NCBI GenBank assembly: GCA_965202685.1
Contig: OZ241853.1
Location: forward strand, 133,333-197,332
Reading direction: 5' to 3'
From: Gammaproteobacteria bacterium
Lineage (GTDB): Bacteria; Pseudomonadota; Gammaproteobacteria; Eutrophobiales; Eutrophobiaceae
DNA: 64,000 nucleotides
The position numbers were made by a program, and so were the translations under genes. The notes below the pieces were generated by a model. It was not told the origin of the DNA, searched no databases, and worked only from the letters and a program-made list of their open reading frames with translations. Shown in pieces: positions 38,688 through 62,308 of the stretch (position 1 is its first letter; every line of letters begins with the position of its first letter).

Positions 38688-38732
38688 CTTTTAGCTTGTT
38701 ACATCCGCCATCCTGCCTGGCGCGCCAACCAA

Positions 38733-41216: not shown

Positions 41217-41319
41217 TAGGCAAAATAGTGGAAAATTAACAAGCTAAAACTGACCGAGCGAGGAAACGCCGCGCCACATGGCGAAAGCTAACAAGCTAAA
41301 AGGGTAATATGGCGACATT

Positions 41320-43302: not shown

Positions 43303-43351
43303 CTTTTAGCTTGTTAGTTTTCCGTTATCCTTCCTGCGCGATCCTCGATGG

Positions 43352-43463
43352 CATAGCTTGGGGCAGGGCTTTTTACGACACGCTGTGAATCCATCCCTGG
43401 ACGCTCTCGGCGCGGCCATCCAGGCCGCGCAGGGTCTTAAAAGCCCTGCCCCCAAGCTACGCC
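43352..43463 (-). repeat. PAL element copy 7
   Basis: gcatagcttggggcagggctttttacgacacgctgtgaatcc...cccaagctacgcc. Confidence 0.8.
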
Positions 43464-43465
43464 CC

Positions 43466-43591
43466 TTTTAGCTTGTTAATTTTCCGCCATGCGGCGCGGC
43501 ATTTCTTCGCTCGGTCAGTCATGTATTTGATATACACTCCTTCCCTCGCTCATCATGCCGCTTGCCTGACGAAAAATTTCCGTCGCTAAAA
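43466..43591 (+). repeat. R unit
   Basis: ttttagcttgttaattttccgccatgcggcgcggcatttcttcgctcggtcag...ccgtcgctaaaa. Confidence 0.7.
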
Positions 43592-43674
43592 TAGTCGCGG
43601 GCTCCGTTATCCTGCCTGGCAAAAATTTCCGTCGCTAAAACACACTCGCAGGCTCCGTTATTTTGCCTAGCGCA

Positions 43675-43688
43675 TTGACCGCTATAAT
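43675..43688 (+). promoter_or_regulatory. TTGACCGCTATAAT promoter-like motif
   Basis: TATAAT at 43683-43688. ATG at 43695. Confidence 0.3.
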
Positions 43689-43694
43689 GGCGGC

Positions 43695-45695: not shown

Positions 45696-45704
45696 TATGG
45701 CGGC

Positions 45705-47729
45705 ATGGCGGCAATGACAAATCGCATTGGAGAACGGGCCCGATTCCATAGTCTGGCACTGGTCGTGTGGTGCCTGTTTTTGATTACGGGCCTCGTCATC
45801 GTCGATGACTACGGCGTCTCGTGGGATACGGAAATCCAGCGTTTTGTCGCCATCAACACCGTCAACTATGTCCTGCATAGCGACCCTGCCCTGTTACACA
45901 ATGACGTTGATCACTTCTACGGCGCCGCCTTCGAGTTGCCCCTGTCCCTGTTGACGGAACGGATCCTGGGGCTAGAAGACCTGCGCCATGTCTATTTGGC
46001 CCGCTATGTCCTGACGCACCTGTTGTTTCTAATCGGCGGGTTCTGTTGCTATCTGTTGACGCGGCGCTTGTCCGGCGACCGGCTGATCGCGCTGTTAGTC
46101 ATGCTACTGTTCCTGCTGTCCCCGCGTCTTTACGCCCATTCCTTTTTCGACACCAAGGATGCGGTGTTCGCCAGCGCCTTCGTCATGGCCTTGCTCGTTG
46201 TGAGTTGCGCCTTTGACAGGGATTCGGTGGGGGCCTATCGGGGGTGCGGGGCGGCGGCGGGGCTTCTCATCAACCTGCGCATCATGGGCGTGGTTCTGTT
46301 TGCCGTCGTGTTGGTCTTTCGGACCTGGGCCTGGTTCCGGGCCGAGGGGAGCGCGGCGCGCCAACGGATTGTGGCGACCACTGGGGTCTTTGCCCTGTGG
46401 GGGGCCTTGTCTTTGTTCATCAGCCTGCCCTATCTCTGGGGCGACCCCGCAGGGCGTCTTTCAGAATATTGGATAGTGTCGGCCGACCATCCTAGCTACC
46501 ACGGCCACCAATTGTTCCGGGGTCAAGTGTTTTCCAGCGCGGCGTTGCCTTGGGATTATGTGTTGCACTGGTTCGTCATCAGCCAGCCGCCGGTGACCTT
46601 GTTGTTGGGTCTGTTGGGCCTAGTGGCCCTGGGCCTTGCCGCTGGGGGCGTCGTCAGACGCGGCGCAGGCGCCGGGCCGGGCGCGGCATGGGGCGCCGCC
46701 GAGTTGCGCTTCGGCGTCCTGCTGGCAACCTGCTTTGCGTTGCCCCTGGTTGCCTTTGTCCTGTTGCGGCCTAACACCATCAATGGCTGGCGGCATTTTT
46801 ATTTCCTGCACGGACCTTTTTGCCTGCTGGCGACCTTCGCCCTGATGGGGTTGCGCCAGCTGTCGGTTCGGGGGTTGCGAAAAGAATGGGTTGGCAGCGC
46901 GGCTTGCGCGCTGACGGCGGCGGGGCTGATCGTCGTGGCGGTCCAGGCGGGGCTGATCGTCGTGGCGGTCCAGATGGCGCGACTCCATCCCCATCAATAT
47001 CTCTATTTCAACTTCTTGGCGGACCGGAAGACCCCGGAACGGTTGCGCGAGCGCTACGAGATGGATTACTGGAACATGATGTGGCGACAGGGCTATGAGT
47101 GGCTCCTGAAAGAGACCCCGGAGGCCGCCATCAACATGAGGCCGCGGAGAGTTGATGCGTTGGCGAACATCAACCGCAATGTGCAGATCCTCGCCCCAGC
47201 GGCCCGCAACCGGTTCACCTACGACCCGAAACGCGACCCAGATTTCTATTTAGGCGGAAGCGGAAACACAAACACAAGGCAAAACCCCCTGCTCAAAGAT
47301 CCTTTCCCTCCCGTTCTTCACCGGTTCAAGGTCTATAACAACACGATGTTGACCGTGTCCACGCCGGATTTGTCCCGGGTTGACCCGGCGGTGGCGGATG
47401 AGTATCGGGCTTTGCATCGGGCGGCGACGGCGGGGGAACCGGCGGCGCGGGCGGGGGGCTTCGATGCGCACCTGCATGGCGACCGGCTGGCGTGGGTGAA
47501 GGAGGCTTGCGAGCCCGGGGCGCTGAGGCGCAAGTTCCAGCTGGCTCTTTACCCGGCGGACGCGGGCCGTTTGCCGGCCCAGCACCGGAAACGGGGCTAT
47601 TTTACAATCAGCGCCTCTGGGGTGCGGTTTGATGGCAAGTGCCTGGGGGCGGCGCGGTTGCCGGACTTCGCCCTAACCCGGATTCGCCTGGGGCAGCCAG
47701 GGAAGTGGGAAGTTGACATCCCCTTTTAG
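45705..47729 (+). CDS. array paralogue 9 (674 aa) with an in-frame 27-bp tandem duplication
   Basis: MAAMTNRIGERARFHS... The duplicated peptide is AGLIVVAVQ (46934-46987). Confidence 0.75.
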   Translation: MAAMTNRIGERARFHSLALVVWCLFLITGLVIVDDYGVSWDTEIQRFVAINTVNYVLHSDPALLHNDVDHFYGAAFELPLSLLTERILGLEDLRHVYLARYVLTHLLFLIGGFCCYLLTRRLSGDRLIALLVMLLFLLSPRLYAHSFFDTKDAVFASAFVMALLVVSCAFDRDSVGAYRGCGAAAGLLINLRIMGVVLFAVVLVFRTWAWFRAEGSAARQRIVATTGVFALWGALSLFISLPYLWGDPAGRLSEYWIVSADHPSYHGHQLFRGQVFSSAALPWDYVLHWFVISQPPVTLLLGLLGLVALGLAAGGVVRRGAGAGPGAAWGAAELRFGVLLATCFALPLVAFVLLRPNTINGWRHFYFLHGPFCLLATFALMGLRQLSVRGLRKEWVGSAACALTAAGLIVVAVQAGLIVVAVQMARLHPHQYLYFNFLADRKTPERLRERYEMDYWNMMWRQGYEWLLKETPEAAINMRPRRVDALANINRNVQILAPAARNRFTYDPKRDPDFYLGGSGNTNTRQNPLLKDPFPPVLHRFKVYNNTMLTVSTPDLSRVDPAVADEYRALHRAATAGEPAARAGGFDAHLHGDRLAWVKEACEPGALRRKFQLALYPADAGRLPAQHRKRGYFTISASGVRFDGKCLGAARLPDFALTRIRLGQPGKWEVDIPF

Positions 47730-47849
47730 CTTGTTAGTTTTCCGTTATCCTTCCTGGCGCTTCCGCGTTCAGTCAGTCATGTGCTGTTTGCACACTCCTT
47801 CCTTCACTTGTCGCGCCAGTTGCCTAACGAAAAACTTCCGTCGCTAAAA
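47724..47849 (+). repeat. R unit (R2 variant)
   Basis: ttttagcttgttagttttccgttatccttcctggcgcttccgcgttcagtcag...cgtcgctaaaa. Confidence 0.65.
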
Positions 47850-47912
47850 AGTGGTCAATGCGCCAGTTGCCTGACGGAAAATTTCCGTCGCTAAAAATGT
47901 TTAAGGGCATAG

Positions 47913-48038
47913 GCGTAGCTTGGGGTGGGGCTTTTAAGACCCTGCGCGGCCTGGATGGCCGCGCCGAGAGCGTCCAGGGATGGATTCACAGCGTGTCGTA
48001 AAAAGCCCCACCCCAAGCTAGGCCCTCGGGTGTCGCGC
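47913..48038 (+). repeat. PAL element copy 8
   Basis: Near-identical to copy 6. Confidence 0.8.
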
Positions 48039-48136
48039 TAGGCAAAATAGTGGAAAACTAACAAGCTAAAACTGACCGAGCGAGGAAACGCCGCGCCATA
48101 TGGCGGAAAATTAACAAGCTAAAATATAATGGCGGC

Positions 48137-50119
48137 ATGGCGGCAATGATAAATCGCATTAGAGAACGGGCCCGATTTCATAGTTTGGCACTGAGCGTGT
48201 GGGCCTTGTTTTTGATAGCGGGCCTCGCCATCGTCGATGACTACGGCGTCTCGTGGGATGCGGGAGCCCAGCGTGGCATCGCCCTCAGCACCCTCAACTA
48301 TGTCCTGCATGATGACCTAGGCCGGTTGCGATCGGTCATTGACCGCTTCTACGGCGTCGCCTTCGAGGCACCCCTGTTGCTGTTGACGGAACGGGTCCTG
48401 GGGCTGGAAGACCCGCGCCATGTCTATCTGACCCGCCATGTCCTGACGCACCTGTGGTTTCTAATTGGCGGGTTCTGTTGCTATCTGCTGGCGTTTCGAT
48501 TGTCTGGCGACCGGCTGGTCGCGCTGTTGGTCATGGCGCTGTTCCTGCTGTCCCCACGCCTGTACGCCCATTCCTTCTTCAACAGCAAGGACCCAGTGTT
48601 CGCCAGCGCCTTCGTCATGGCCCTGCTCGTTGTGAGCCGCGCCTTTGACAAGGACTCGGTGGGGGCCTATCGCTGGTGCGGGGCGGCAGCGGGGCTTCTT
48701 GTCAGCCTGCGCATCATGGGCGTGGTTCTGTTTGCCGCCGTGTTGGTCTTTCAGGCCTGGGCCTGGTTTCGGGCCGAGGGGGGCGCGGCGCGGCGGCGGG
48801 TGGCGGCGACCACTGGGGTCTTCGCCCTGTGGGGAATCGTTGTCTTGTTCATCAGTCTGCCCTACCTCTGGGGCGACCCCATAGGGCGGCTTTCAGAATA
48901 TTGGGTGGCGTTGACCGACCATCCTGACTACCACGGCCACCTATTGTTCTGGGGTCAGGCGTTTTCCGGCGGGGCGTTGCCTTGGGACCATGTGTTGCGC
49001 TGGTTCGCCATCAGCCAGCCGCCGGTGACCTTGTTGTTGGGATTGTTGGGCCTAGTGGCCCTGGGCCTTGCCGCTGGGGGCGTCGTCAGACGCGGCGCGG
49101 GCGCCGGGCCGGGCGCGGCATGGGGGGGGGGGGGCGAGTTGCGCTTCGGCGTCTTGCTCGCAACCTGTTTTGCGTTGCCCCTGCTCGCCTTTGTTCTGTT
49201 GCGGCCCACCACCCTCGTCGATAGCTGGCGGCATTTTTATTTCCTGCACGGGCCTTTTTGCCTGCTGGCGACCTTCGCCCTGATGGGGGTGCGTCAGCTG
49301 TCGGCGCGGGGGTTGCAAAGAAGATGGCTCGGCGGCGCGGCGTGCGCGCTGACAGCGGCGGGGCTAGGCGTCACGGCCTTTGAAATGGCGCAGATCCATC
49401 CTAACCAGCACCTCTATTTCAACTTTTTGGCGGACCGGAAGACCCCGGAACGGCTACAGGCCCGCCACACCGTGGATTACTCCCTGGCGATGCGACAGGG
49501 TTACGAATACCTGCTAAGACAAACCCCGGCCGCCGCCATTAACCTGGAAAAGAAACACTTCCTCACGAGACTCGTTGGGGGCATATTCATTCTTCCCGCG
49601 GCAGACCATCGCCGGTTCACCTACGACCGCAGTCGCGACCCGGATTTCTATTTCAGCGGAAGCGGAAACACAAGCGTAAAGATAAGCTTCCTGACCAAAG
49701 ATCCTTTCCCTCCCGTTCTTCACCAGTTCAAGGTCTATAACAACACCATGATGACCGTTTCCACGCCGGATTTGTCCCGGGTTGACCCGGCGGTGGCGAA
49801 TGAGTATCGGGCTTTGCATCGGGCGGCGACGGCGGGGGAACCGGTGACGCGGGAGAGCGGCTATGAAGTCCACCGGCACGGCTCGCGGCTGGCGTGGGTG
49901 AAGGAGGCTTGCGAGCCTGGGGAATTGATGCATCCGTTCCGGCTCAGGGTTTACCCGGCGGACGCGGGCCGTTTGCCTAGCGGGGGCTACTTCGGACTCA
50001 GCGTCCGCGGGGTGCGGTTTGATGGCAAGTGCCTGGGGGCGGCGTGGTTGCCGGACTTCGCCTTAACCCGGATTCGCCTGGGGCAATCAGGGAAGTGGGA
50101 AGCCGACATCCCCTTTTAG
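48137..50119 (+). CDS. array paralogue 10 (660 aa); contains a 13-nt G tract
   Basis: MAAMINRIRERARFHS... G13 at 49122-49134 is in frame (AWGGGGELRFG). Confidence 0.75.
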   Translation: MAAMINRIRERARFHSLALSVWALFLIAGLAIVDDYGVSWDAGAQRGIALSTLNYVLHDDLGRLRSVIDRFYGVAFEAPLLLLTERVLGLEDPRHVYLTRHVLTHLWFLIGGFCCYLLAFRLSGDRLVALLVMALFLLSPRLYAHSFFNSKDPVFASAFVMALLVVSRAFDKDSVGAYRWCGAAAGLLVSLRIMGVVLFAAVLVFQAWAWFRAEGGAARRRVAATTGVFALWGIVVLFISLPYLWGDPIGRLSEYWVALTDHPDYHGHLLFWGQAFSGGALPWDHVLRWFAISQPPVTLLLGLLGLVALGLAAGGVVRRGAGAGPGAAWGGGGELRFGVLLATCFALPLLAFVLLRPTTLVDSWRHFYFLHGPFCLLATFALMGVRQLSARGLQRRWLGGAACALTAAGLGVTAFEMAQIHPNQHLYFNFLADRKTPERLQARHTVDYSLAMRQGYEYLLRQTPAAAINLEKKHFLTRLVGGIFILPAADHRRFTYDRSRDPDFYFSGSGNTSVKISFLTKDPFPPVLHQFKVYNNTMMTVSTPDLSRVDPAVANEYRALHRAATAGEPVTRESGYEVHRHGSRLAWVKEACEPGELMHPFRLRVYPADAGRLPSGGYFGLSVRGVRFDGKCLGAAWLPDFALTRIRLGQSGKWEADIPF

Positions 50120-50239
50120 CTTGTTAGTTTTCCGTTATCCTGCCTGGCGCTTCCGCGTTCAGTCAGTCATGTATTTGATATACACTCCTTCCCTCACTTG
50201 TCGCGCCAGTTGCCTGACGAAAAATTTCCGTCGCTAAAA
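50114..50239 (+). repeat. R unit (R/R2 hybrid)
   Basis: ttttagcttgttagttttccgttatcctgcctggcgcttccgcgttcagtcagtcatgtatttgatatacactcc...gctaaaa. Confidence 0.65.
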
Positions 50240-50295: not shown

Positions 50296-52300
50296 ATGGC
50301 GGCAACGATAAATCGCATTGGAGAACGGGCCAGATTCCATAGTCTGGCACTGATCGTGTGCGCCTTGTTTTTGATGACGGGCCTCGCCATCGTCGATGAC
50401 TACGGCATCTCGCCGGATACGAAAATCCAGCGCCTTATCGCCCTCAGCACCCTCAACTATGTCCTGCAAGACGACCCAGGCCGGTTGCGAATGCTCGCTG
50501 ACCGCTTCTACGGCGCCGCCTTCGAGGCGCCCCTGTTCCTGTTGACGGAACGGGTCCTGGGGCTGGAAGACCCACGCCATGTCTATTTGGCCCGCCATGT
50601 CCTGACGCACCTGTTGTTTCTAATCGGCGGGTTCTGTTGCTATCTGCTGGCGTTTCGATTGTCCGGCGACCGGCTGGCCGCGCTGTTGGTCATGTTGCTG
50701 TTCCTGCTGTCCCCGCGCCTGTACGCCCATTCCTTCTTCAACAGCAAGGATGCGGTGTTCGCCAGCGCCTTCGTCATGGCCTTGCTCTTTGCGAGCCGCG
50801 CCTTTGACAGGGACTCGTTGGGGGCCTATCGGTGGTGCGGGGCAATGGCAGGACTTCTCGTCAACCTGCGCATCATGGGAGTGGTTCTGTTTGCCATCGT
50901 GTTGGTCTTTCGGGCCTGGGCCTGGTTTCGGGCCGAGGGGGGCGCGGCGCGGCGGCGGGTGGCGGCGACCGCTGGGGTCTTTGCCCTGTGGGGGGGCCTT
51001 GTCTTGTTCATCAGCCTGCCCTATCTCTGGGGCGATCCCGCAGGGCGTCTGGGGGAATATTGGATGGCGTTGGCCGACCATCCTACCCACCGCTTCCGCC
51101 TATTGTTTCGGGGTCAGGCGGTTTCCAGCGCGGCGTTGCCTTGGGACTATGTGTTGCGCTGGTTCGCCATCAGCCAGCCCCTCGTGACCCTGTTGTTGGG
51201 TCTGCTGGGCCTGGGGGCCTTGGGCCTTGCCGCTGGGGGCGTCGTCAGACGCGGCGCGGACGCCGGGCCTGGACCGGGCGCGGCATGGGGGGGGGGGGGG
51301 GGGGGGGGAGTTGCGCTTCGGCATTCTGCTGGCAACCTGTTTTGCGTTGCCCCTGGTTGCCTTTGTTCTGTTGCGGCCCAACACCTCCGATGACTGGCGG
51401 CATTTTTATTTCCTGCACGGGCCTTTTTGCCTGCTGGCGACCTTCGCCCTGATGAGGTTGCGCCAGCTGCCGGCGCGGGGGTTGCAAAGAAGATGGCTCG
51501 GCGGCGCGGCCTGCGCGCTGACGGCGGTGGGACTAGGCATCACGACCTTTGAAATGGCGCAGATCCATCCTAACCAGCATCTCTATTTCAACCCATTAGT
51601 GGACCGGAAAACCCCGGAACGGCTACGGGCCCGCTACACCATGGATTACTACATGGCGATGCGGCAGGGTTATGAATACCTACTAAGACAAGGTCCGACC
51701 GCCGCCATTAACCTGGAAAAGAAATACTTCCTCTCGAGACTCGTTTATGGCATATTCATTCTTCCCGCGGCAGACCATCGCTGGTTCACCTACGACCGCA
51801 GTCGCGACCCGGACTTCTATTTAAGCGGAAGCGGAAACACAAGCATAAAGTTAAGCTTTCTGCCCAAAGATCCTTTCCCTCCCGTTCTTCACCGGTTCAA
51901 GGTCTATAACAACACCATGTTGATCGTATCCACGCCGGATCTGTCCCGGGTTGACCCGGCGGTGGCGGATGAGTATCGGGCTTTGCATCGGGCGGCGACA
52001 GCGGGGACGCCGGCGGCCCGGGCGGGGGGCTTCGATGTACACCTGCATGGCGACCGGCTGGCGTGGGTGAAGGAGGCTTGCGAGCCTGGGGAATTGATGT
52101 CGCCATTCCGGCTCAGGCTTTACCCGGCGGACGCGGGCCGTTTGCCGAACCATCTCCGGAAACAGGGTTACTTTGCAATCAGCGCCTTTGGGGTGCGGTT
52201 TGACGACAAGTGCCTGGGGGCGGCGCGGTTGCCGGATTTCGCCCTGACCCGGATTCGCCTGGGGCAACAAGGGAGATGGGAAGTTGAGGTCCCCTTTTAG
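50296..52300 (+). pseudogene. array paralogue 11, frameshifted at a 22-nt G tract (phase-OFF copy or sequencing artefact)
   Basis: ORFs 50296..51393 and 51227..52300 are the two halves of one paralogue, offset by a frameshift at G22 (51287-51308). It has an intact promoter motif tattgaccgctataat. Confidence 0.6.
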
Positions 52301-52301
52301 C

Positions 52302-52427
52302 TTTTAGCTTGTTAGTTTTCCGCCATGCGTCCTGGCGTTTCTTTGCTCGGGCGGTCATGTGCTATTTGCACACTCCCTTCCTCGCTCATCACGCCAGTTG
52401 CCTGACGAAAAACTTCCGTCGCTAAAA
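52302..52427 (+). repeat. R unit (first of two near-identical tandem copies)
   Basis: tagttttccgccatgcgtcctggcgtttctttgctcgggcggtcatgtgctatttgcacactccc...gctaaaa. Preceded by a 2x TTTTAGC microsatellite. Confidence 0.7.
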
Positions 52428-52430
52428 TGG

Positions 52431-52548
52431 TTGTAGTTTTCCGCCATGTGGCGCGGCGTTTCTTTGCTCGGGCGGTCATGTGCTATTTGCACACTCCCTT
52501 CCTCGCTCATCACGCCAGTTGCCTGACGAAAAACTTCCGTCGCTAAAA
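52431..52548 (+). repeat. R unit (second tandem copy); R fragments follow to 52690
   Basis: Near-identical to 52302-52427. Confidence 0.7.
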
Positions 52549-52693
52549 TGGTTGTAGTTTTCCGCCATGTGGCGCGGCGTTTCCTCGCTCGGTCAGTTTT
52601 AGCTCGTTAGTTTTCCGTTATCCTTCCTGGCGCTTCCGCGTTCAGTCAGTTTAGCTTGTTACATCCGCCATGCGTCTTGGCGGCCAAACTAGG

Positions 52694-52805
52694 GCGTAGC
52701 TTGGGGCAGGGCTTTTAAGACCCTGCGCGGCCCGGATGGCCGCGCCGAGAGCGTCCAGGGATGGATTTACAGCGTGTCGCAAAAGGCCCTGCCCCAAGCT
52801 ACACC
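52694..52805 (+). repeat. PAL element copy 9
   Basis: gcgtagcttggggcagggcttttaagaccc...gtcgcaaaaggccctgccccaagctacacc. Confidence 0.8.
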
Positions 52806-52985: not shown

Positions 52986-54983
52986 ATGTTTGCAATGACA
53001 AACCCCATTGGAGAACGGATCCGGTTCCATCGCTTAGCGTTGATCGCATGCGCCCTATTCCTGATTACGGGCCTCGCCATCGTCGATGACTACGGCGTCT
53101 CTGTAGATACGGTGGGGCAGCGTCGCATCACCATCAACACCGTCAACTATGTCCTGCATGACGACCCAAGCCTGTTGCAAGTGCAGGCTGACCGCTTCTA
53201 CGGCGTCGCCTTCGAGTTGCCCCTGCTTCTGTTGACGAAACGGGTCCTGGGGCTGGAAGACCCGCGCCATGTCTATTTGGCCCGCCATGTCCTGACGCAC
53301 CTGTTGTTTCTAATCGGCGGGTTCTGTTGCTATCTGCTGGCGTTTCGATTGTCCGGCGACAGGCTGATCGCGCTGTTGGTCATGTTGCTGTTCCTGCTGT
53401 CCCCGCGCCTGTACGCCCATTCCTTTTTCAACAGCAAGGATGCGCCGTTCGCCAGCGTCTTCGTCATGGCCTTGCTCTTTGCGAGCCGCGCCTTTGACAA
53501 GGACTCGGTGGGGGCCTATCGGTGGTGCGGGGCAATAGCGGGACTTCTCGCCCACCTGCGCATCATGGGCGTGGTTCTGTTTGCCGTCGTGTTGGTCTTT
53601 CGGGCCTGGGCCTGGTTCCGGGCCGAGGGGGGCGCGGCGCGGCGGCGGGCGGCGGCGACCACTGGGGGCTTTGCCCTGTGGGGGGGCCTTGTCTTGTTCA
53701 TCAGCCTGCCCTATCTCTGGGGCGACCCCGCAGGGCGGCTGGCGGAAATGCCAGCGGTACTGAGCGATCATCCCATTGCCTCTTATGAGTTGTTCAAGGG
53801 ACAAGTGTTTCCGAGCGTGGCGTTGCCTTGGGACTATGTGTTGCGCTGGTTCGCCATCAGCCAGCCGCCGGTGACCTTGTTGTTGGGCCTGTTGGGCCTA
53901 GTGGCCTTGGGCCTTGCCGCTCAGGGCGTCGTCGGACGCGGCGCGGGCGCCCGGCCGGGCGCGGCATGGGGGGGCGCCGAGTTGCGCTCCGGCGGCCTGC
54001 TTGCGGCCTGCTTTGTTCTGCCTATGGCCGCTTTTGTTTTGTTGCGACCCGGCACCGGTGATGGCTGGCGGCATTTCTATTTTCTGCACGGGCCTTTTTG
54101 CCTGCTGGCGACCTTCGCCCTGATGGGAATGCGCCAGCTGGCGGCGCGGGGGTTGCGAAAAGAATGGGTGGGCGGCGCGGCTTGCGCGCTGACAGCGGCG
54201 GGGCTGGGCGTTGCGGCCCTTGAAATGGCGCAGATCCATCCTAACCAGCACCTTTATTTCAACTTTTTTGTGGACCGGAAAACCCCGGAACGGCTAAACG
54301 AACGCTACGAGACGGATTACTGGGACATGATGTTGCGGCAAGGGTATGAACACATCCTGCGACGAGAGCCTGCTTCCATCATTAACATGAGGCGGCGCCA
54401 GGTTCACTTGTGGGCGGACATCAACCGCAATGTGCGGATTCTCCCGGCGACGGCCCGCAACCGGTTCACCTACGACCCCAGCCGCGACCTGGATTTCTAC
54501 TTGGGCGGAAGCCCGGAGAGAAGCTTCCTGCCCAGAGATCCTTTCCCCCCCGTTATCCATCGGATCAAGGTCTATAACAACACGATGTTGACCGTATTCA
54601 CGCAGGATTTGTCCCGGGTTGACCCGGCGGTGGCGGATAAATATCGGGCTTTGCATCGGGCGGCGACGGCGGGGGTGCCGACGGCCCGAGGGGGGGGGTT
54701 CGATGTGCACCTGCATGGCGACCGGCTGGCGTGGGTGAAGGAGGCTTGCGAGCCAGGGGCACTGAAGCGTGAGTTCCTGCTCAAGCTTTATCCGGCGGAC
54801 CCGGGCCGTTTGCCAGAATCTCGCCGGCGCTGGGGCTACTTCGAACTCGGCGCCCGCGGGGTGCGGTTTGACGGCAAGTGCCTGGGGGCGCGACGACTGC
54901 CGGACTTCGCCCTGGCCCGGATTCGCCTGGGGCAGTCTGCTTCTGGCGGAGGGGCAGTGTGGGAAACCGACATCCACTTTTAG
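52986..54983 (+). CDS. array paralogue 12 (665 aa from ATG 52986; ORF open from 52761)
   Basis: MFAMTNPIGERIRFHR... Its C-terminal domain type is shared with paralogues 13 and 14. Confidence 0.75.
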   Translation: MFAMTNPIGERIRFHRLALIACALFLITGLAIVDDYGVSVDTVGQRRITINTVNYVLHDDPSLLQVQADRFYGVAFELPLLLLTKRVLGLEDPRHVYLARHVLTHLLFLIGGFCCYLLAFRLSGDRLIALLVMLLFLLSPRLYAHSFFNSKDAPFASVFVMALLFASRAFDKDSVGAYRWCGAIAGLLAHLRIMGVVLFAVVLVFRAWAWFRAEGGAARRRAAATTGGFALWGGLVLFISLPYLWGDPAGRLAEMPAVLSDHPIASYELFKGQVFPSVALPWDYVLRWFAISQPPVTLLLGLLGLVALGLAAQGVVGRGAGARPGAAWGGAELRSGGLLAACFVLPMAAFVLLRPGTGDGWRHFYFLHGPFCLLATFALMGMRQLAARGLRKEWVGGAACALTAAGLGVAALEMAQIHPNQHLYFNFFVDRKTPERLNERYETDYWDMMLRQGYEHILRREPASIINMRRRQVHLWADINRNVRILPATARNRFTYDPSRDLDFYLGGSPERSFLPRDPFPPVIHRIKVYNNTMLTVFTQDLSRVDPAVADKYRALHRAATAGVPTARGGGFDVHLHGDRLAWVKEACEPGALKREFLLKLYPADPGRLPESRRRWGYFELGARGVRFDGKCLGARRLPDFALARIRLGQSASGGGAVWETDIHF

Positions 54984-54997
54984 CTTTTAGCTTTTAG
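54977..54997 (+). repeat. 3x tandem TTTTAGC heptanucleotide at the stop codon
   Basis: cacTTTTAGCTTTTAGCTTTTAGCttgttag. Other copies carry 1 or 2 units. Confidence 0.8.
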
Positions 54998-55163
54998 CTT
55001 GTTAGTTTTCCGTTATCCTGCTTGGCGCGCCAACCAGGGCATAGCTTGTTACATCCGCCATGCGGCGCGGCATTTCTTTGCGCGGTCAGTCATGTATTTG
55101 ATATACACTCCCTCCCGCGCTCATCATGCCGCTTGCCTGACGAAAAACTTCCGTCGCTAAAAA

Positions 55164-57176
55164 ATGGTCAATTCACCGCTTGCAGGGCGGAAAACTAACA
55201 AGCTAAAACGGGCCCGATTCCATAGTTTGGCACTGCTCGTGTGGTCCCTGTTCCTGATAGCGGGCCTCGCCATCGTCGATGACTACGGCGTCTCGATAGA
55301 TACGGAAAACCAGCATCTTAACGCCCTCAGCACTCTCAACTATGTCCTGCATGACGACCTAGGCCGGTTCCGAGTGGCCGCTGACCGCTTCTACGGCGCC
55401 GCCTTCGAGTTGCCCCTGCTTCTGTTGACGGAACGGGTCCTGGGGCTGGAAGACTCGCGCCATGTCCATTTAGCCCGCCATGTCCTGACGCACTTGTTTT
55501 TTCTGCTTGGCGGGTTCTGTTGCTATCTGTTGGCGCGGCGCTTGTCCGGCGACCGGCTGATCGCGCTGTTGGTCATGTTGCTGTTCCTGCTGTCTCCGCG
55601 TCTTTACGCCCATTCCTTCTTCAACAGCAAGGATGCGGTGTTCGCCAGCGCCTTCGTCATGGCCTTGCTCTTTGTGTGTCGCGCCTTTGACAGGGACTCG
55701 TTGGGGGCCTATCGGTGGGGCGGCGCGGCGGCGGGGCTTCTCATCAACCTGCGCATCATGGGCGTGGTTCTGTTTGCCGCCGTGTTGCTCTTTCGGGCTT
55801 GGGCCTGGTTTCGGGCCGAGGGGTGCGCGCCGCAACGACGGATTGTGGCGACCACTAGCGTCTTCGCCCTGTGGGGGGGCCTTGTCTTGTTCATCAGCCT
55901 GCCCTACCTCTGGGATGACCCAGTAGGGCGGCTGGCGGAAATGGTCATGGCGTTGGCCGATCATCCTATCGTTCTTCATGAATTATTCCGGGGGCAAGTG
56001 TTTTCCAGCGCGGCGTTGCCTTGGGATTATGTGTTGCGCTGGTTCGCCATCAGCCAGCCGCCGGTGACCTTGTTGTTGGGACTGTTGGGCCTAGTGGCCC
56101 TGGGCCTTGCCGCTGGAGGCGTCGTCAGACGCGGCGCGGGCGCCGGGCCGGGCGCGGCGTGGGGGGCCGCCGAGTTGCGCTTCGGCATCCTGCTGGCAAC
56201 CTGCTTTGCATTGCCCCTAGTTGCCTTTGTTCTGTTGCGGCCCAATGCCTACCAGGGCTGGCGGCATTTTTATTTCCTGCACGGGCCTTTTTGCCTGTTG
56301 GCGACCTTCGCCCTGATGGGGTTGCGCCAGCTGTCGGCGCGGGGGTTGCAAAGAAGATGGGTTGGCGGCGCGGCTTGCGCGCTGACAGCGGCGGGGCTGG
56401 GCGTCGTGGTTGTCCAGATGGCGCGACTCCATCCTAACCAATATCTCTATTTCAACTTTTTTGTGGACCGAAAAACTCCGGAATGGCTAAACGAACGCTA
56501 CGAGACGGATTACTGGGACATGATGTTGCGGCAAGGGTATGAACACATCCTGCGACGAGGGCCTGCTTCCATCATTAACATGAGGCGGCGCCAGGTTATC
56601 TTGTGGGATGACATCAACCGCAATGTGCAGATCCTCCCGGCGGCGGCCCGGAGCCGGTTCACCTATGACCCCAGTCGCGACCTGGATTTCCACTTGGGCG
56701 GAAGCCCGGAGAGAAGCTTCTTGCCCAGAGATCCTTTCCCCCCCGTTATCCATCGGATCAAGGTCTATAACAACACGATGTTGACCGTATTCACGCAGGA
56801 TTTATCCCGGGTTGACCCGGCGGTGGCGGATGAATATCGGGCTTTGCATCGGGCGGCGACGGCGGGGGAGCCGGCGGCCCGGGCGGGGGGCTTTGATGTG
56901 CACCTGCATGGCGACCGGCTGGCGTGGGTGAAGGAGGCTTGCGAGCCAGGAGAATTGTTGTTTCCGTTCTGGCTCGCGTTTTACCCAGTGGACGCGGGCC
57001 GTTTGCCAGAATCTCGCCGGCGATGGGGCTACTTCGAACTCGGCGCCCGCGGGGTGCGGTTTGACGGCAAGTGCCTGGGAGCGCGACGACTGCCGGACTT
57101 CGCCCTAGCCCGGGTGCGCCTGGGGCAACATGCTCCTAGTGGGGAGGTGCTATGGGAAGCCGACATCCCCTTTTAG
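55164..57176 (+). CDS. array paralogue 13, 5'-end replaced at the same junction as paralogue 6
   Basis: MVNSPLAGRKTNKLK | RARFHS. The junction is gctaaaa|cgggcccgattccat at 55208/55209. Confidence 0.55.
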   Translation: MVNSPLAGRKTNKLKRARFHSLALLVWSLFLIAGLAIVDDYGVSIDTENQHLNALSTLNYVLHDDLGRFRVAADRFYGAAFELPLLLLTERVLGLEDSRHVHLARHVLTHLFFLLGGFCCYLLARRLSGDRLIALLVMLLFLLSPRLYAHSFFNSKDAVFASAFVMALLFVCRAFDRDSLGAYRWGGAAAGLLINLRIMGVVLFAAVLLFRAWAWFRAEGCAPQRRIVATTSVFALWGGLVLFISLPYLWDDPVGRLAEMVMALADHPIVLHELFRGQVFSSAALPWDYVLRWFAISQPPVTLLLGLLGLVALGLAAGGVVRRGAGAGPGAAWGAAELRFGILLATCFALPLVAFVLLRPNAYQGWRHFYFLHGPFCLLATFALMGLRQLSARGLQRRWVGGAACALTAAGLGVVVVQMARLHPNQYLYFNFFVDRKTPEWLNERYETDYWDMMLRQGYEHILRRGPASIINMRRRQVILWDDINRNVQILPAAARSRFTYDPSRDLDFHLGGSPERSFLPRDPFPPVIHRIKVYNNTMLTVFTQDLSRVDPAVADEYRALHRAATAGEPAARAGGFDVHLHGDRLAWVKEACEPGELLFPFWLAFYPVDAGRLPESRRRWGYFELGARGVRFDGKCLGARRLPDFALARVRLGQHAPSGEVLWEADIPF

Positions 57177-57177
57177 C

Positions 57178-57294
57178 TTTTAGCTTGTTAGTTTTCCGTT
57201 ATCCTTCCTGGCGCTTCCGCGTTCAGTCAGTCATGTGCCATTGCGCACACTCCTTCCTTCACTTGTCGCGCCAGTTGCCTAACGAAAAACTTCC
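57178..57294 (+). repeat. R unit (R2 variant, truncated end)
   Basis: Follows a 2x TTTTAGC repeat at 57171-57184. Confidence 0.6.
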
Positions 57295-57375
57295 GTCGCT
57301 AAATGCTCGTCATGCCGCTTGCCTGACGAATGTTCCGTCATGCTTCGTGGATGGACAGGAAGATGAGGTGGAATG

Positions 57376-57488
57376 GGCCTAGCTTGGGGGCGGGCTTTTA
57401 AGACCCTGTGCGGCCTGGATGGCCGCACCGAGAGCGTCCAGGGATGGATTCACAGCGTGTCGTAAAAAGCCCGCCCCCAAGCTAGGCC
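57376..57488 (+). repeat. PAL element copy 10
   Basis: gcctagcttgggggcgggcttttaagaccc...gtcgtaaaaagcccgcccccaagctaggcc. Confidence 0.8.
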
Positions 57489-57549
57489 CTGGTTGGCGCA
57501 CTAGGACGCAGGGCGGAAAACTAACAGGCCAAAAAGGTAATATGGCGGC

Positions 57550-59535
57550 ATGGCGGCAATGACAAATCGCATTGGAGGATGGGCCCGGTTCCATCGCTTA
57601 GCATTAATTGCCTGCGCCCTGTTCCTCCTTGCGGGTCTCGCCATCGTCGATGACTATGGCGTTACGATAGACACAACCTCTCAACGGGCTATCGCCCTCA
57701 GCACCCTCAACTATGTCCTGCATGACGACCCAGGCCGGTTGCGAGTGGTCGTTGACCGCTTCTACGGCGCCGCCTTCGAGTTGCCCCTGTTCCTGTTGAC
57801 GGAACGGGTCCTGGGGCTGGAAGACCCGCGCCATGTCTATTTGGCCCGCCATGTCCTGACGCACCTGTTTTTTCTAATCGGCGGGTTCTGTTGCTATCTG
57901 TTGGCGTTTCGATTGTCCGGCGACCGGCTGGCGGCGCTGTTGGTCATGGCGTTGTTTCTCTTGTCCCCGCGCATCTACGCTCATTCCTTCTTCAACAGCA
58001 AGGATCCGGTGGCTGCCAGCGCCTTCGTCATGGCCTTGCTCGTTGTGTGTCGCGCCTTTGACAAGGACTCGGTGGGGGCCTATCGGTGGTGCGGGGCAAT
58101 GGCGGGACTTGTCGTCAACCTGCGCATCTTGGGCATCGCCCTGTTTGCCGTCGTGTTGGTCTTTCAGGCCTGGGCCTGGTTCCGGGCCGGGGGGGGCGCG
58201 GCGCGGCGGCGGGTTGTAGTGACCACTGGCGCTTTCGCCCTGTGGGGAATCGTTGTCTTGTTCATCAGCCTGCCCTATCTCTGGGGCGACCCCGCAGGGC
58301 GGCTGGCGGAAATGGTCGAGATTATGCGCGATCATCCTACCGTTTATCTGGTATTGTTCCGGGGGCAGGTGTTTTCCGGCGCGGCGTTGCCTTGGGACTA
58401 TATGTTGCGCTGGTTCGCCATCAGCCAGCCGCCGGTGACCTTGTTGTTGGGGCTGTTGGGCCTAGTGGCCCTGGGCCTTGCCGCCAGGGGCGTCGTCAGA
58501 CGCGGCGCAGGCGCCGGGCCCGGGCCGGGCGCGGCGTGGGGCGCCGCCGAGTTGCGCCTCGGCATATTGCTCGCAACCTGCTTTGCGTTGCCCCTGGTTG
58601 CCTTTGCGCTGTTGCGACCCACCTCCCTCAATGACTGGCGGCATTTTTATTTCTTGCACGGGCCTTTTTGCCTGCTGGCGACCTTCGCCCTGATGGGGTT
58701 GCGCCAGCTGCCGATGCGGGAGGCGCAAAGAAGATGGCTCGGCGGCGCGGCGCGCGCACTGACGGCGGCTGGGCTGGGCGTCGTGGCGGTCCAGATGGCG
58801 CAGATCCATCCTAACCAGCATCTCTATTTCAACTTTTTTGTGGATCGGAAGACCCCGGAACGGTTGCGCGAGCGCTACGAGACGGATTACTGGGACATGA
58901 TGTTGCGGCAAGGTTATGAACACATCCTGCGACGAGAGCCTGCTTCCATCATTAACATGAGGCCGCGAGAGCTTGACTGGGCGTCCATCAACCGCAATGT
59001 GCAGATTCTCCCGGCGGCGGCCCGCAAACGGTTCACTTATGACCGCAGTCGCGACCTGGATTTCTACCTGGGAGGAAGCCCGGAGAAAAGCTTCCTGCCC
59101 AGAGATCCTTTCCTCCCCGTAATCCATCGGATCAAGGTCTATAACAACACGATGTTGACCGTATCCACGCCGGATTTGTCCCGAGTTGACCCGGCGGTGG
59201 CGGAGGCGTATCGGGCTTTGCATCGGGCGGCGACGGCGGGGGAACCGGTGGCTCGCGGGGGGGGCTTCAATGTGCACCTGCATGGCGACCGGCTGGCGTG
59301 GGTGAAGGAGGCTTGCGAGCCTGGGGAATTGTTGTTTCCGTTCCGACTCGCGTTTTACCCAGTGGACGCGAGCCGGTTGCCGAAACCACGCCGCAACTGG
59401 GGATACTTCGAACTCGACGCCCGCGGGGTGCGGTTTGACGGCAAGTGCCTGGGGGCGCGACGACTGCCGGACTTCGCCCTGGCCCGCGCGCGTTTGGGGC
59501 AACCGGGGAGATGGGAAGTTGACATCCCCTTTTAG
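57550..59535 (+). CDS. array paralogue 14 (661 aa)
   Basis: MAAMTNRIGGWARFHR... Its central ~1 kb is near-identical to paralogue 4. Confidence 0.75.
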   Translation: MAAMTNRIGGWARFHRLALIACALFLLAGLAIVDDYGVTIDTTSQRAIALSTLNYVLHDDPGRLRVVVDRFYGAAFELPLFLLTERVLGLEDPRHVYLARHVLTHLFFLIGGFCCYLLAFRLSGDRLAALLVMALFLLSPRIYAHSFFNSKDPVAASAFVMALLVVCRAFDKDSVGAYRWCGAMAGLVVNLRILGIALFAVVLVFQAWAWFRAGGGAARRRVVVTTGAFALWGIVVLFISLPYLWGDPAGRLAEMVEIMRDHPTVYLVLFRGQVFSGAALPWDYMLRWFAISQPPVTLLLGLLGLVALGLAARGVVRRGAGAGPGPGAAWGAAELRLGILLATCFALPLVAFALLRPTSLNDWRHFYFLHGPFCLLATFALMGLRQLPMREAQRRWLGGAARALTAAGLGVVAVQMAQIHPNQHLYFNFFVDRKTPERLRERYETDYWDMMLRQGYEHILRREPASIINMRPRELDWASINRNVQILPAAARKRFTYDRSRDLDFYLGGSPEKSFLPRDPFLPVIHRIKVYNNTMLTVSTPDLSRVDPAVAEAYRALHRAATAGEPVARGGGFNVHLHGDRLAWVKEACEPGELLFPFRLAFYPVDASRLPKPRRNWGYFELDARGVRFDGKCLGARRLPDFALARARLGQPGRWEVDIPF

Positions 59536-59606
59536 CTTGTTACATCCGCCATGCATCGCGGCATTTCTTCACTCGGTCAGTCATGTATTTCATGCACACT
59601 CCTTCC

Positions 59607-59733
59607 TTTTTAGCTTGTTAGTTTTCCGCCATGCGTCCTGGCGTTTCTTTGCTCGGGCGGTCATGTGCTATTTGCACACTCCCTTCCTCGCTCATCACGC
59701 CAGTTGCCTGACGAAAAACTTCCGTCGCTAAAA
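59607..59733 (+). repeat. R unit
   Basis: Near-identical to 33812-33937. Preceded by a partial R (59530-59600). Confidence 0.7.
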
Positions 59734-59787
59734 TGGTTGCGGGATAACGGAAAACTAACAAGCTAAAAGGGATGACGGGGTGCATAG

Positions 59788-59899
59788 GCGTAGCTTGGGG
59801 GTGGGCTTTTAAGACCCTGTGCGGCCCGGATGGCCGCACCGAGAGCGTCCAGGGATGGATTCACAGCGTGTCGTAAAAAGCCCGCCCCCAAGCTAGGCC
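59788..59899 (+). repeat. PAL element copy 11
   Basis: Near-identical to copy 10. Confidence 0.8.
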
Positions 59900-59960
59900 C
59901 TGGTTGGCGCACTAGGACGCAGGGCGGAAAACTAACAGGCCAAAAAGGTAATATGGCGGC

Positions 59961-61967
59961 ATGGCGGCAATTACAAATCGCATTGGAGAACGGATCCGGT
60001 TCCATCGCTTAGCGTTGATTGCATGGTGCCTGTTTCTGATAGCGGGCCTCGCCATCGTCGATGACTACGGAGTCTCGCCGGATGCGGGAAACCAGCATCT
60101 TGTCGCCGTCAACACCCTCAACTACATCCTGCATTACGACCCAGGCCAGTTGCGAGTGGTCTCTGACCGCTTCTACGGCGCCGCCTTCGAGTTGCCCCTG
60201 TTCCTATTGACGGAACGGGTCCTGGGGCTGGAAGACCCGCGCCATGTCTATCTGACCCGCCATGTCCTGACGCACCTGTTGTTTCTAATCAGCGGGTTCT
60301 GTTGCTATCTGTTGGCGTGGCGCTTGTCCGGCGACCGACTGGTCGCGCTGTTGGTCATGTTGCTGTTTCTCCTGTCCCCGCGTCTTTACGCCCATTCCTT
60401 TTTCAACAGCAAGGATGCGGTGTTCGCCAGCGCCTTCGTGATGGCCTTGCTCTTTGCGAGCTGCGCCTTTGACAGGGACTCGGTGGGGTCCTATCGGTGG
60501 TGCGGCGCGGCGGCGGGGCTTCTCATCCACCTGCGCATCATGGGCGTGGCGCTGTTTGCTCTCGTGTTGGTCTTTCGGGCCTGGGCCTGGTTTCGGGCCG
60601 AGGGCGCGGCGCAACGGCGGGTTGTAGTGACCACTGGGGTCTTTGCCCTGTGGGGGGGCGTTGTCTTGTTCATCAGCCTGCCCTACCTCTGGGGCGACCC
60701 CATAGGGCGTCTTTCAGAATATTGGGCGGCGTTGGCGGACCATCCTGCTGTCCACTCCCGCGAATTGTTCCGGGGCCGGACCTTTTCCAGCGCGGCGTTG
60801 CCTTGGGATTATATGTTGCACTGGTTCGCCATCAGCCAGCCGCCGGTGACCTTGTTGTTGGGGCTGTTGGGCCTAGTGGCCCTGGGCCTTGCCGCTGGGG
60901 GTGTCGTCAGACGCAGCGCGGGCGCCGGGCCGGGGCGCGGTTTGGGCGCCGCCGAGTTGCGCCTCGGCATCCTGCTTGCAATCTGCTTTGTGTTGCCCAT
61001 GGTCGCCTTTGTTCTGTTGCGGCCCAACACCATCAATGGCTGGCGACATTTTTATTTCCTGCACGGGCCTTTTTGCCTGCTGGCGACTTTCGCCCTGGCG
61101 TGGTTGCGCCAGCTGGCGGCGCGGGGGGTGCGAAAAGGATGGGTTGGCGGCGCGGCTTGCGTGCTGACGGCGGCGGGGCTAGGCGTCGCGGCCCTTGAAA
61201 TGGCGCAAATCCACCCCCACCAATATCTCTATTTTAATTTCTTGGCGGACCGGAAGACCCCGGAAGGGTTGCGCGAGCGCTACGAGACGGATTACTGGAA
61301 CATGATGTTGCGGCAAGGGTATGAACACATCCTGCGGCAAGCGCCGCCTGCTTCCACCATTAACATGAGGCCGCGAGAGGTTCATTCGCGGGCGGACATT
61401 AACCGCAATGTGCAGATTCTCCCGGCGGCGGCCCGCAAACGGTTCACCTATGACCGCAGTCGCGACCTGGATTTCCACTTAAATGGAAGAGGACACACGG
61501 CCCGGAGCGGCCTGCCCAAAGATCCTTTCCCCCCCGCGCTCCACCAGATCAAGGTCTATAACAACACCATTATGACCGTATCCACACCGGACCTGTCCTG
61601 GGTTGACCTGGCGGTGGCGGATGAGTATCGGGCTTTGCATCGGGCGGCGACGGCGGGGGAACCGGCGGCTCGCGGGGGTGGCTTCGATGCGCACCTGCAT
61701 GGCGACCGGCTGGCGTGGGTGAAGGAGGCTTGCGAGCCTGGGGCGTTGATGCGCGAGTTCTTGCTCAGGCTTTACCCGGCGGACCCGCGGCGTTTGCCAG
61801 AATTTCGCCGGCGCTGGGGCTATTTCGAACTCAGTGCCCGCGGGGTGCGGTTTGACGGCAAGTGTCTGGGGGCGAGACGACTGCCGGACTTCGCCCTGGC
61901 CCGGATTCGCCTGGGGCAACAGGGGCCTGACGGGGGGGTGCTGTGGGAAACCGACATCCCGTTTTAG
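59961..61967 (+). CDS. array paralogue 15 (668 aa)
   Basis: MAAITNRIGERIRFHR... Confidence 0.75.
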   Translation: MAAITNRIGERIRFHRLALIAWCLFLIAGLAIVDDYGVSPDAGNQHLVAVNTLNYILHYDPGQLRVVSDRFYGAAFELPLFLLTERVLGLEDPRHVYLTRHVLTHLLFLISGFCCYLLAWRLSGDRLVALLVMLLFLLSPRLYAHSFFNSKDAVFASAFVMALLFASCAFDRDSVGSYRWCGAAAGLLIHLRIMGVALFALVLVFRAWAWFRAEGAAQRRVVVTTGVFALWGGVVLFISLPYLWGDPIGRLSEYWAALADHPAVHSRELFRGRTFSSAALPWDYMLHWFAISQPPVTLLLGLLGLVALGLAAGGVVRRSAGAGPGRGLGAAELRLGILLAICFVLPMVAFVLLRPNTINGWRHFYFLHGPFCLLATFALAWLRQLAARGVRKGWVGGAACVLTAAGLGVAALEMAQIHPHQYLYFNFLADRKTPEGLRERYETDYWNMMLRQGYEHILRQAPPASTINMRPREVHSRADINRNVQILPAAARKRFTYDRSRDLDFHLNGRGHTARSGLPKDPFPPALHQIKVYNNTIMTVSTPDLSWVDLAVADEYRALHRAATAGEPAARGGGFDAHLHGDRLAWVKEACEPGALMREFLLRLYPADPRRLPEFRRRWGYFELSARGVRFDGKCLGARRLPDFALARIRLGQQGPDGGVLWETDIPF

Positions 61968-62087
61968 CTTGTTAGTTTTCCGCCATGCGTCCTGGCGTTT
62001 CCTCGCTCAGCCAGTCATGTATGTGACATACACTCCCGCCCTCGCTCCTCACGCCAGTTGCCTGACGAAAAACTTCCGTCGCTAAAA
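61962..62087 (+). repeat. R unit; R2 hybrid and fragments follow to about 62260
   Basis: ttttagcttgttagttttccgccatgcgtcctggcgtttcctcgctcagccagtcatgtatgtgacatacactcccgccc...gctaaaa. Confidence 0.7.
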
Positions 62088-62308
62088 CACACTTGCAGGC
62101 GCCGTTATCCTGCCTGGCGCTTCCGCGTTCAGTCAGTCATGTGCCATTACGCACACTCCTTCCTTCACTTGTCGCGCCAGTTGTCTAACGAAAAATTTCC
62201 GTCGCTAAAACAGTGGTCAATGCGCCAAGTTGCCTGACGAAAAATTTCCGTCGCTAAAATGGTTGCGGGTAACGGAAAGCTAACAAGTTAAAAGGGTAAT
62301 ATGGCGGC

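Follow-up and report, generated by a model that had tools for sequence, protein, structure and literature searches.

A hairpin-forming intergenic repeat with a stop-codon-bearing heptamer terminus in a paralogous gene array of an uncultured gammaproteobacterial lineage

We analysed a 64,000-nucleotide stretch of contig OZ241853.1 (assembly GCA_965202685.1, Gammaproteobacteria; referred to as the window), in which a tandem array of paralogous genes is interspersed with copies of an intergenic repeat that we call R. R is probably a lineage-specific hairpin repeat resembling repetitive extragenic palindromes (REPs), enterobacterial repetitive intergenic consensus (ERIC) elements and MITEs (miniature inverted-repeat transposable elements), which serves as a recombination substrate for the array and ends in a slippage-prone terminus, the heptamer TTTTAGC, that is neutral for coding. 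The array consists of about 16 or more co-oriented open reading frames (ORFs) of ~660 amino acids (aa) each, located between 27.2 and 64 kb of the window and sharing 73 to 82% identity with one another. Their sole family match is a weak one to PMT_2/PMT (GT-C glycosyltransferase fold); no match was found in NCBIfam or in a PDB sequence search.

27220 to 64000, plus strand: tandem array of GT-C/PMT_2-like paralogues with repeat-built spacers, continuing beyond the window end

In total, ~146 kb of DNA from five assemblies was examined. These include a sister strain (ENA ERZ25068319), in which loci L003 and L001 belong to the same array and L004 to a second one, and three more assemblies with the same genes and repeats (loci L009, L010 and L011). 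The R/paralogue system is thus found in four other assemblies of the lineage, and no genuine match came from the other collections searched. R measures 124 to 127 bp (typically ~126 bp) and has invariant termini, TTTTAGC...GCTAAAA, consistent with a preceding sequence-only reading that described a unit of ~125 bp with 7-bp inverted termini; the seven perfect inverted bases are followed by ~36 imperfect ones. A covariance model of R identifies 19 full copies in the window, 16 on the plus and 3 on the minus strand, all within 27350 to 62210 and none in 1 to 27349. In all DNA examined, R is confined to arrays and their immediate flanks, and ~30% of copies are inverted. Comparison of the copies reveals three subfamilies and four kinds of 5' end, and upholds the earlier division into R, R2 and hybrids: the variants are R1a, R1b and R2, the CATCC type of 5' end, and hybrids, of which the copy at 50114 is an example. 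Some spacers hold two or three R units, and junctions range from 0 to 3 units in either orientation. The tandem doubling reported at 52302 and 52431 was recovered with units at 52302 and 52428 (period 121, 96% identity), and the model places the inverted copies reported at 31683, 36504 and 38774 at 31682, 36504 and 38775. The copies listed here include some that adjoin PAL, a second repeat described below.

27350 to 27475, plus strand: first full R, which follows PAL, not a gene
31682 to 31807, minus strand: inverted R with its TTTTAGC end right against TATAATGGCGGCATG, where the next paralogue starts
33812 to 34059, plus strand: R1 and R2 in tandem, following the stop of paralogue 31820-33817
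36504 to 36629, minus strand: inverted R of the R2 type
38775 to 38900, minus strand: inverted R fused straight to the coding sequence of the next paralogue
40827 to 41074, plus strand: R1b and R2 pair
43466 to 43591, plus strand: R after PAL, away from a stop, with a single heptamer
47724 to 47849, plus strand: R2 on the stop of paralogue 45705-47729
50114 to 50239, plus strand: hybrid R that combines R2 arms with an R1b apical hairpin, on the stop of 48137-50119
52302 to 52592, plus strand: 2.3 tandem R1 units with a period of 121
55039 to 55162, plus strand: R joined at the common TAGCTTG to a PAL flank, the site of PAL absence compared with L001
57178 to 57304, plus strand: R2 following a double heptamer
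59530 to 59733, plus strand: R truncated to its first 78 nt, on the stop of 57550-59535, then a full R
61962 to 62210, plus strand: R1 and R2 pair on the stop of 59961-61967

Single R copies fold as one full-length hairpin closed by TTTTAGC/GCTAAAA, with z-scores of -2.3 to -8.2. This structure is kept in an alignment of 30 copies from two assemblies and four loci, where 98.1% of pair cells show standard pairing. Twelve of 32 pairs have changed on both sides with pairing kept, compared with 0 to 2 when the 3' partner is slid by 1 to 3 columns. Compensatory changes include CTGGCGT/ACGCCAG, GCGGCAT/ATGCCGC and CTGGCGC/GCGCCAG, as well as TGTAT/ATACA versus TGTGC/GCACA, and the covariation score is 0.285 compared with 0.141 in shuffles. 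The proposal that R has structure and is not an inert duplicated spacer is therefore borne out by terminal and internal pairing together with covariation.

These observations already disfavor the idea that R is an inert spacer co-duplicated with the genes, its palindromy being historical. Some of the distribution fits that idea. R occurs only in arrays and their immediate flanks, and is absent from GTDB species representatives (no exact match to its 3' end in one genome per species) and from JGI metagenomes, in which four matches to its 5' end were judged to be due to chance, the one inspected having 38% G+C. Similarly, Rfam 15 gives no match at the gathering score across the window and none at E<=1 in 40700 to 48200. 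However, twelve pairs have been kept through double changes among subfamilies with 98% of cells paired, mismatches are strand-biased, and copies stand in both orientations and beside unrelated genes. We consider an inert spacer very unlikely.

The two strands of R differ in their folding. In 24 of 24 copies, folding of the gene-complementary strand is more favorable by ~19 kcal/mol, and the sense strand folds at about -37 kcal/mol. The gene-complementary strand has a consensus structure of 37 pairs and carries almost all of the one-sided G-U variants. This asymmetry would run opposite to the expectation from deamination of the non-transcribed strand, which points to selection on the gene-complementary strand, either as single-stranded DNA or as antisense RNA.

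TTTTAGC is found 61 times in the window compared with 4.5 expected (13-fold; none of 100 shuffles reaches 61), and all occurrences except one lie within 27350 to 62259. The stop codon is the TAG of the first heptamer copy at 13 of 15 paralogue ends in the window. The earlier claim that every paralogue stops within the heptamer thus holds for 13 genes but fails for two: in the gene that ends at 29505, TTCTAG precedes a truncated R end and there is a fusion to the next gene, and the gene ending at 45695 has a TAA stop and no R and is fused to the next start. Likewise, the C terminus (I/V)PF, which had been ascribed to all paralogues, is found in nine of the 13 heptamer-stop genes, the others ending in LF (three) or HF (one). 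The heptamer is present once at eight stops in the window, twice at four and three times at one. The triple copy is as described previously, although its position was one base off (54978-54998, not 54977-54997); the doubles at 38682, 52295 and 57171 are where they had been placed, and the one given as 43299 is at 43297.

54978 to 54998, plus strand: three copies of TTTTAGC, the first being the TTT-TAG end of paralogue 52998-54983 and the last the 5' terminus of an R 5' end fragment; the L001 ortholog has two copies
38682 to 38695, plus strand: two copies on the stop of paralogue 36708-38687
43297 to 43310, plus strand: two copies on the stop of paralogue 41320-43302
52295 to 52308, plus strand: two copies on the stop of frameshifted paralogue 50296-52300
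57171 to 57184, plus strand: two copies on the stop of paralogue 55164-57176; the L001 ortholog has one copy

Some full R units whose TTTTAGC is intact stand after PAL and not after a gene (27350, 43466 and 52808), and R copies in related loci flank GntR, TonB-receptor, clpA and ksgA genes, indicating that the heptamer belongs to R and that it is R from which the paralogues take their final codon and stop. Locus L011 is more divergent, and some of its paralogues have an inverted R end as their terminus (...ACG GAA AAC TAA), so that either orientation of R supplies a stop. TTTTAGC and the 3' GCTAAAA pair to form the foot of the unit-long hairpin, and wherever R comes straight after a paralogue the heptamer provides the last Phe codon and TAG. 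This gene-R junction may have been propagated by duplication, deletion and reshuffling of genes and spacers via recombination among the repeats, which would explain why nearly every paralogue ends in the heptamer.

Two features of the gene ends were noted separately. The fused neighbor pairs are separated by a 9-nt gap (29499-29517 and 45689-45707), and in the first pair the downstream start is the ATG of the R 5' region (TTTTCCGCCATG). In L009 (6030-6076), a called ksgA (RrnaAD) of the opposite strand extends into an R 5' end, and the complement of TTTTAGC gives it the last ~15 codons and the TAA stop.

Changes in heptamer number leave the protein untouched. When the gene is rebuilt in silico with 1 to 9 heptamers, the same 661-aa protein results each time, because the first copy always holds TTT-TAG in frame. 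With zero heptamers, translation reads on for 52 codons to a TAA inside GCTAAAA, but slippage cannot yield zero copies. The nucleotide after the stop is C at every copy number, so its immediate context is constant as well. The sequence-only reading had raised the possibility that a unit change could alter the C terminus or read-through; neither effect is supported. A contingency tract switches the reading frame or the promoter of a gene when its length changes; this one lies 3' of the ORF and leaves the frame as it is. Two related ideas were rejected. First, R might be coding, as two sense-strand frames are open through it; we attribute this to an A-poor strand, and all antisense frames are closed. 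Second, a back-up stop or +1 frameshift at UUU-UAG-C follows no consistent logic, as two copies put a TAG in the +1 frame and three bring a ribosome that has read through back into an open one.

The heptamer is a true variable-number tandem repeat (VNTR) of 1 to 9 copies that differs between close strains. In the comparison with the sister strain, four or five clearly orthologous junctions have flanking coding sequence at least 97% identical. Heptamer number differs at two of these (3 versus 2 and 2 versus 1), and another sister-strain junction carries nine perfect copies; length thus varies between close relatives as in phase-variable simple sequence repeats (SSRs), and the suggestion of slipped-strand behavior is supported. 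Across the paralogue stops of all loci, the heptamer occurs once at ~26 junctions, twice at 9 or 10, three times at one and nine times at one. We infer that the number changes by replication slippage at the hairpin foot.

Multi-copy tracts are confined to stop codons, being found at 8 of 21 stop-adjacent R ends and 0 of 32 other R ends (three loci, corrected classification). By a hand-calculated hypergeometric test, this excess has p ~2e-4 when all other ends serve as the comparison and ~0.01 when the comparison is limited to ends in direct orientation; before the classification was corrected, the values were 0.005 and 0.11, and the junctions are partly non-independent. Further duplications, with units of 10, 11 and 21 bp, also begin at the heptamer's first base.

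L009 3550: 10-bp unit, three copies
L010 402: 10-bp unit, two copies
L004 4453: 11-bp duplication
L003 4993, L001 16715 and L011 10775: 21-bp duplications

Copy number does affect the predicted position of the stop relative to the hairpin. With one copy, the stop codon lies inside the stem; with at least three, the last copy is used for pairing and the stop lies outside. Each heptamer thus shifts the stop-hairpin distance by 7 nt with no change in protein. A possible, though doubtful, explanation is that R is an mRNA 3'-end hairpin (a stabilizer, processing site or terminator) and the heptamer tract a per-gene rheostat: each added copy would move the stop 7 nt from the hairpin foot, terminating ribosomes would no longer melt the stem, and the stability or termination of that paralogue would shift. 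Consistent with this, most paralogues have R in sense orientation immediately on their 3' side (16 of 19 copies), folding of the sense strand is still good, multi-copy tracts occur only at stop codons, and variable poly-G tracts (see below) make the paralogues look like contingency genes. There is also a precedent in the 5' untranslated region (5'-UTR) of Haemophilus influenzae hmw1, where an ATCTTTC heptamer SSR is one arm of a long hairpin processed by RNase III (PMC12721329). On the other hand, the G-U pairs place selection on the antisense strand, ~30% of copies are inverted, and several spacers hold two or three R units. Nor does R look like an intrinsic terminator, a role that had been put forward for testing: it ends in GCTAAAA with no U-run 3' of it, the U-run being on the 5' side, and in consensus scans terminator-like sites are not enriched (31 found compared with 30.7 expected). 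Promoter-like sites are not enriched either.

R is one of four pieces from which the spacers are assembled as mosaics, the others being PAL, 36-nt R 3' fragments and solo inverted R 5' ends; R, PAL and solo R ends make up all spacers of the array. PAL is ~125 bp long with terminal inverted repeats of ~24 bp (TAGCTTGGGGyGGGGCTTTT). As had been proposed, the ends of R and PAL have a 7-mer in common, TAGCTTG, which occurs 51 times compared with 3.4 expected.

47906 to 48030, plus strand: PAL
34108-34231, 41084-41208, 52693-52801, 57370-57490 and 59782-59901, plus strand: other PAL copies
27227-27347, 31546-31666, 36364-36488 and 43346-43463, minus strand: other PAL copies
48076 to 48124, minus strand: solo inverted R 5' end (…CGGAAAATTAACAAGCTAAAA) immediately upstream of TATAATGGCGGCATG
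34068-34094, 41213-41249, 41254-41301, 48035-48071, 55182-55208, 57503-57534, 59742-59768, 59914-59945 and 62267-62293: similar solo R ends

Spacers have been rearranged between the two strains. After the paralogue ending at 54983, the spacer is identical to that of the sister strain except for two single-nucleotide polymorphisms, one heptamer and a 118-bp PAL, which is present in the sister strain (L001 7530-7650) and precisely absent from the window (55039-55048). TAGCTTG direct repeats bound this PAL, and precise loss of a palindrome between direct repeats is a classical outcome of slippage across the palindrome. The next two orthologous spacers and the array head carry different or swapped modules. 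Collinearity with the sister strain is limited to the window's last four genes; the other genes are mosaic, and the arrays of the two strains hold different gene sets. The mosaic paralogues, judged by sequence identity, indicate likely gene conversion inside the array. In L001 901-2889, the last ~380 nt are 97% identical to window gene 45705-47729, and the best full-length match in the window is 82%. We infer that R copies act as recombination substrates through which arrays may expand, contract and reshuffle.

The bracketing of spacers by TTTTAGCTTGTTAGTTTTCCG ... CGGAAAACTAACAAGCTAAAA and the presence of the R-PAL module in both orientations in different spacers might suggest invertible promoter modules (invertons) bounded by inverted R ends that switch paralogues on and off. 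Yet no compared orthologous spacer differs by inversion, the differences being indels and module swaps instead; the module contains no sigma-70-like promoter, and no invertase gene was seen. We dropped this idea because orthologous spacers show no inversion between strains, and regard it as extremely improbable.

R ends also bracket most genes, with ...CGGAAAACTAACAAGCTAAAA, TATAATGGCGGC and ATG upstream and CC-TTTTAGCTTGTTAG... downstream, giving the layout GCTAAAA + 12 nt + ATG ... TTTTAGC. Together with the strand asymmetry, this arrangement bears on a further reading, in which R is a single-stranded DNA recombination site, such as an integron attC/Vibrio cholerae repeat (VCR) or an IS200/IS605 or REPIN end, and a putative recombinase inserts, excises and shuffles cassettes, the duplications being scars left by cutting and rejoining at the first T. 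Folding is much better for one strand, and G-T wobble pairs gather on that strand only. VCRs are 123 to 126 bp long; R is similar in size, with one element per co-oriented ORF in a long array, high within-array similarity and strand-asymmetric folding, and as an imperfect palindrome within the ~57 to 141 bp of attC sites it favors one strand when folded single-stranded. Further, the same gene end in L011 is joined to either R-end orientation, the 7-, 10-, 11- and 21-bp duplications all begin at the same base, and arrays occupy at least three genomic sites. In contrast to attC, which has 5' RYYYAAC and 3' GTTRRRY, R has GTTAG in its 5' arm and CCTAAC/CCTGAC in its 3' arm on both strands, so that the box polarity is reversed. 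At the array head, where an integron would have intI and attI, no intI was found, with no recombinase Pfam match in 1 to 27 kb, and no integrase or transposase was seen beside the array start or among the called genes of related loci. All "cassettes" are paralogues of one 2-kb gene, and junctions hold 0 to 3 R units, some of them inverted. The attC idea was dropped because of the reversed polarity and the lack of intI, and we judge a recombination site of this kind to be very improbable. A slight chance, in our view, attaches to the related proposal that R ends are the cassette boundaries of a new folded-single-stranded-DNA recombination system, analogous but not homologous to attC. A putative enzyme would then cut at the first base of TTTTAGC and leave the 7-, 10-, 11- and 21-bp duplications as scars, and surface-glycan transferases would be kept in the arrays as shuffled libraries. 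In a weaker version, heptamer number would be a heritable rheostat of per-gene expression via the stop-hairpin distance.

Several observations weigh against our preferred reading of R as a REP/ERIC/MITE-like hairpin repeat. As regards mobility, no target-site duplication flanks R, and a Pfam scan of the 27 kb left of the array revealed no transposase, recombinase or integrase gene. The DNA examined is a small sample. For most copies the better-folding strand is antisense to the genes, a bias that a passive spacer and an mRNA element alike leave unexplained. The restriction of multi-copy tracts to stops is a hint that selection, or some mechanism specific to the junctions, acts in addition to plain slippage, and the 10-, 11- and 21-bp duplications from the same base are not classical microsatellite behavior.

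Among known repeats, ERIC elements and MITEs appear closest in kind to R. The ERIC elements (intergenic repeat units) of enterobacteria and MITEs such as the Correia elements of Neisseria are imperfect palindromes of ~100 to 150 bp with terminal inverted repeats, located intergenically in either orientation. Their copies can be truncated, nested or hybrid, they can supply gene ends, and their presence varies between strains. R resembles them in size, in its terminal inverted repeats (7 perfect and ~36 imperfect bases; ~24 bp in PAL), in having both orientations and truncated, nested and hybrid copies, and in supplying gene ends; presence/absence polymorphism between strains is seen here for PAL. 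However, R has no sequence relation to these elements and lacks a TA or other target duplication: the flanks of full R copies share no direct repeat, and the TAGCTTG flanking the PAL indel is part of the R and PAL ends themselves. It also differs in being seen only in or beside paralogue arrays of one uncultured lineage and in having a stop-bearing microsatellite as its terminus.

REPs are 20- to 40-bp palindromes, one end of which bears GTAG or CGTC as an unpaired tag (PMC3733652). Like REPs and REPINs, which are often paired into larger structures, the palindromes described here lie mostly downstream of coding regions and between unidirectional genes. GTAG is found at both PAL ends, and CGTC next to the R 3' terminus (columns 117-120), where it is half paired. 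Unlike the short REPs, R forms one 126-bp hairpin and PAL is ~125 bp long; no RAYT (REP-associated tyrosine transposase) gene was seen in the ~146 kb of DNA, and R has no copies in the first 27,349 nt of the window.

The nearest heptamer tracts outside ORFs appear to be ATCTTTC, an SSR upstream of H. influenzae hmw1 and hmw2 whose repeats form one arm of a long hairpin in hmw1 (PMC12721329), and TAACTGA, found as intergenic direct repeats in Beggiatoaceae and Cyanobacteria (PMC4679880). They too have a 7-nt unit, variable copy number and a location outside the ORF, and TAACTGA, like TTTTAGC, contains stop codons. In contrast, both lie 5' of genes (in the promoter, in the 5'-UTR or just before the start codon), whereas the TTTTAGC tract begins on the stop codon and forms the 5' foot of a 3' hairpin. 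In our literature search we found no account of a stop-carrying microsatellite as the terminus of a palindromic repeat. Among palindromic intergenic repeats, R is a new variant restricted to one lineage.

Structured intergenic repeats are common, and their function is seldom clear. R is unusual in being tied to one large gene family with variable poly-G tracts that is heavily reshuffled between close strains, in having a hairpin kept by compensatory changes with one strand favored, and in its stop-bearing microsatellite terminus. The system poses the questions of whether such repeats drive the expansion and shuffling of contingency gene arrays and whether a repeat tract at the 3' end can tune expression with the protein untouched. 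If neither holds, R is still a new palindromic repeat family with a neutral VNTR usable as a strain marker in an uncultured lineage.

The poly-G tracts, of 9 to 22 G, lie at one conserved site in the paralogues (...GGGCGCGGCAT(G)nCGAGTTGCGC...).

Window 51287-51308 and 49122-49134: poly-G tracts
L001 4052-4068: poly-G tract
L009 433-441: poly-G tract
L010 8701, 13257 and 15526: poly-G tracts

The G22 tract in the window and a G21 tract in L010 each split the gene into two ORFs. With the G13 tract the gene is intact, and the L001 gene with G17 is called as a single 688-aa ORF. This variation looks like classical frame-switching phase variation of individual paralogues; homopolymer errors of long-read sequencing could also produce it.

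The sister strain has the array with an identical left boundary (L003 and L001) and a second array beside clpS/clpA (L004, contig_1 2378198-2400207). A further array lies beside ksgA-pdxA-surA-lptD (L009, ERZ23495584 scaffold_3 1-15868), a gene cluster that by itself suggests a proteobacterial host. With such arrays at other genomic sites, the family has dozens of members per genome. Homology search with the paralogue family yielded 860 proteins, nearly all from ENA metagenomes, and a paralogue protein profile matched only an unrelated Blautia protein among one genome per GTDB species.

The left 27 kb of the window contains ordinary metabolic and envelope genes. At ~27200, the array head adjoins a GST-like ORF (named without a Pfam scan), which sits exactly at the array boundary, and an aldehyde dehydrogenase gene. 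The left flank (20299-27169) carries genes of the aromatic meta-cleavage type, including a 2-hydroxymuconic semialdehyde dehydrogenase (24843-26378) and FAA-hydrolase-family genes. Inside paralogue 45705-47729, a perfect 27-bp tandem duplication (46919-46973) is in frame and adds nine residues. Gene starts look leaderless, with TATAAT or TAATAT 6 nt ahead of the ATG and no Shine-Dalgarno sequence (window 31808-31822, 48125-48139 and 27515-27534; L001 19607-19628; L011 12990-13004), and a similar start is found at the GntR-family gene that ends the array in two other assemblies.

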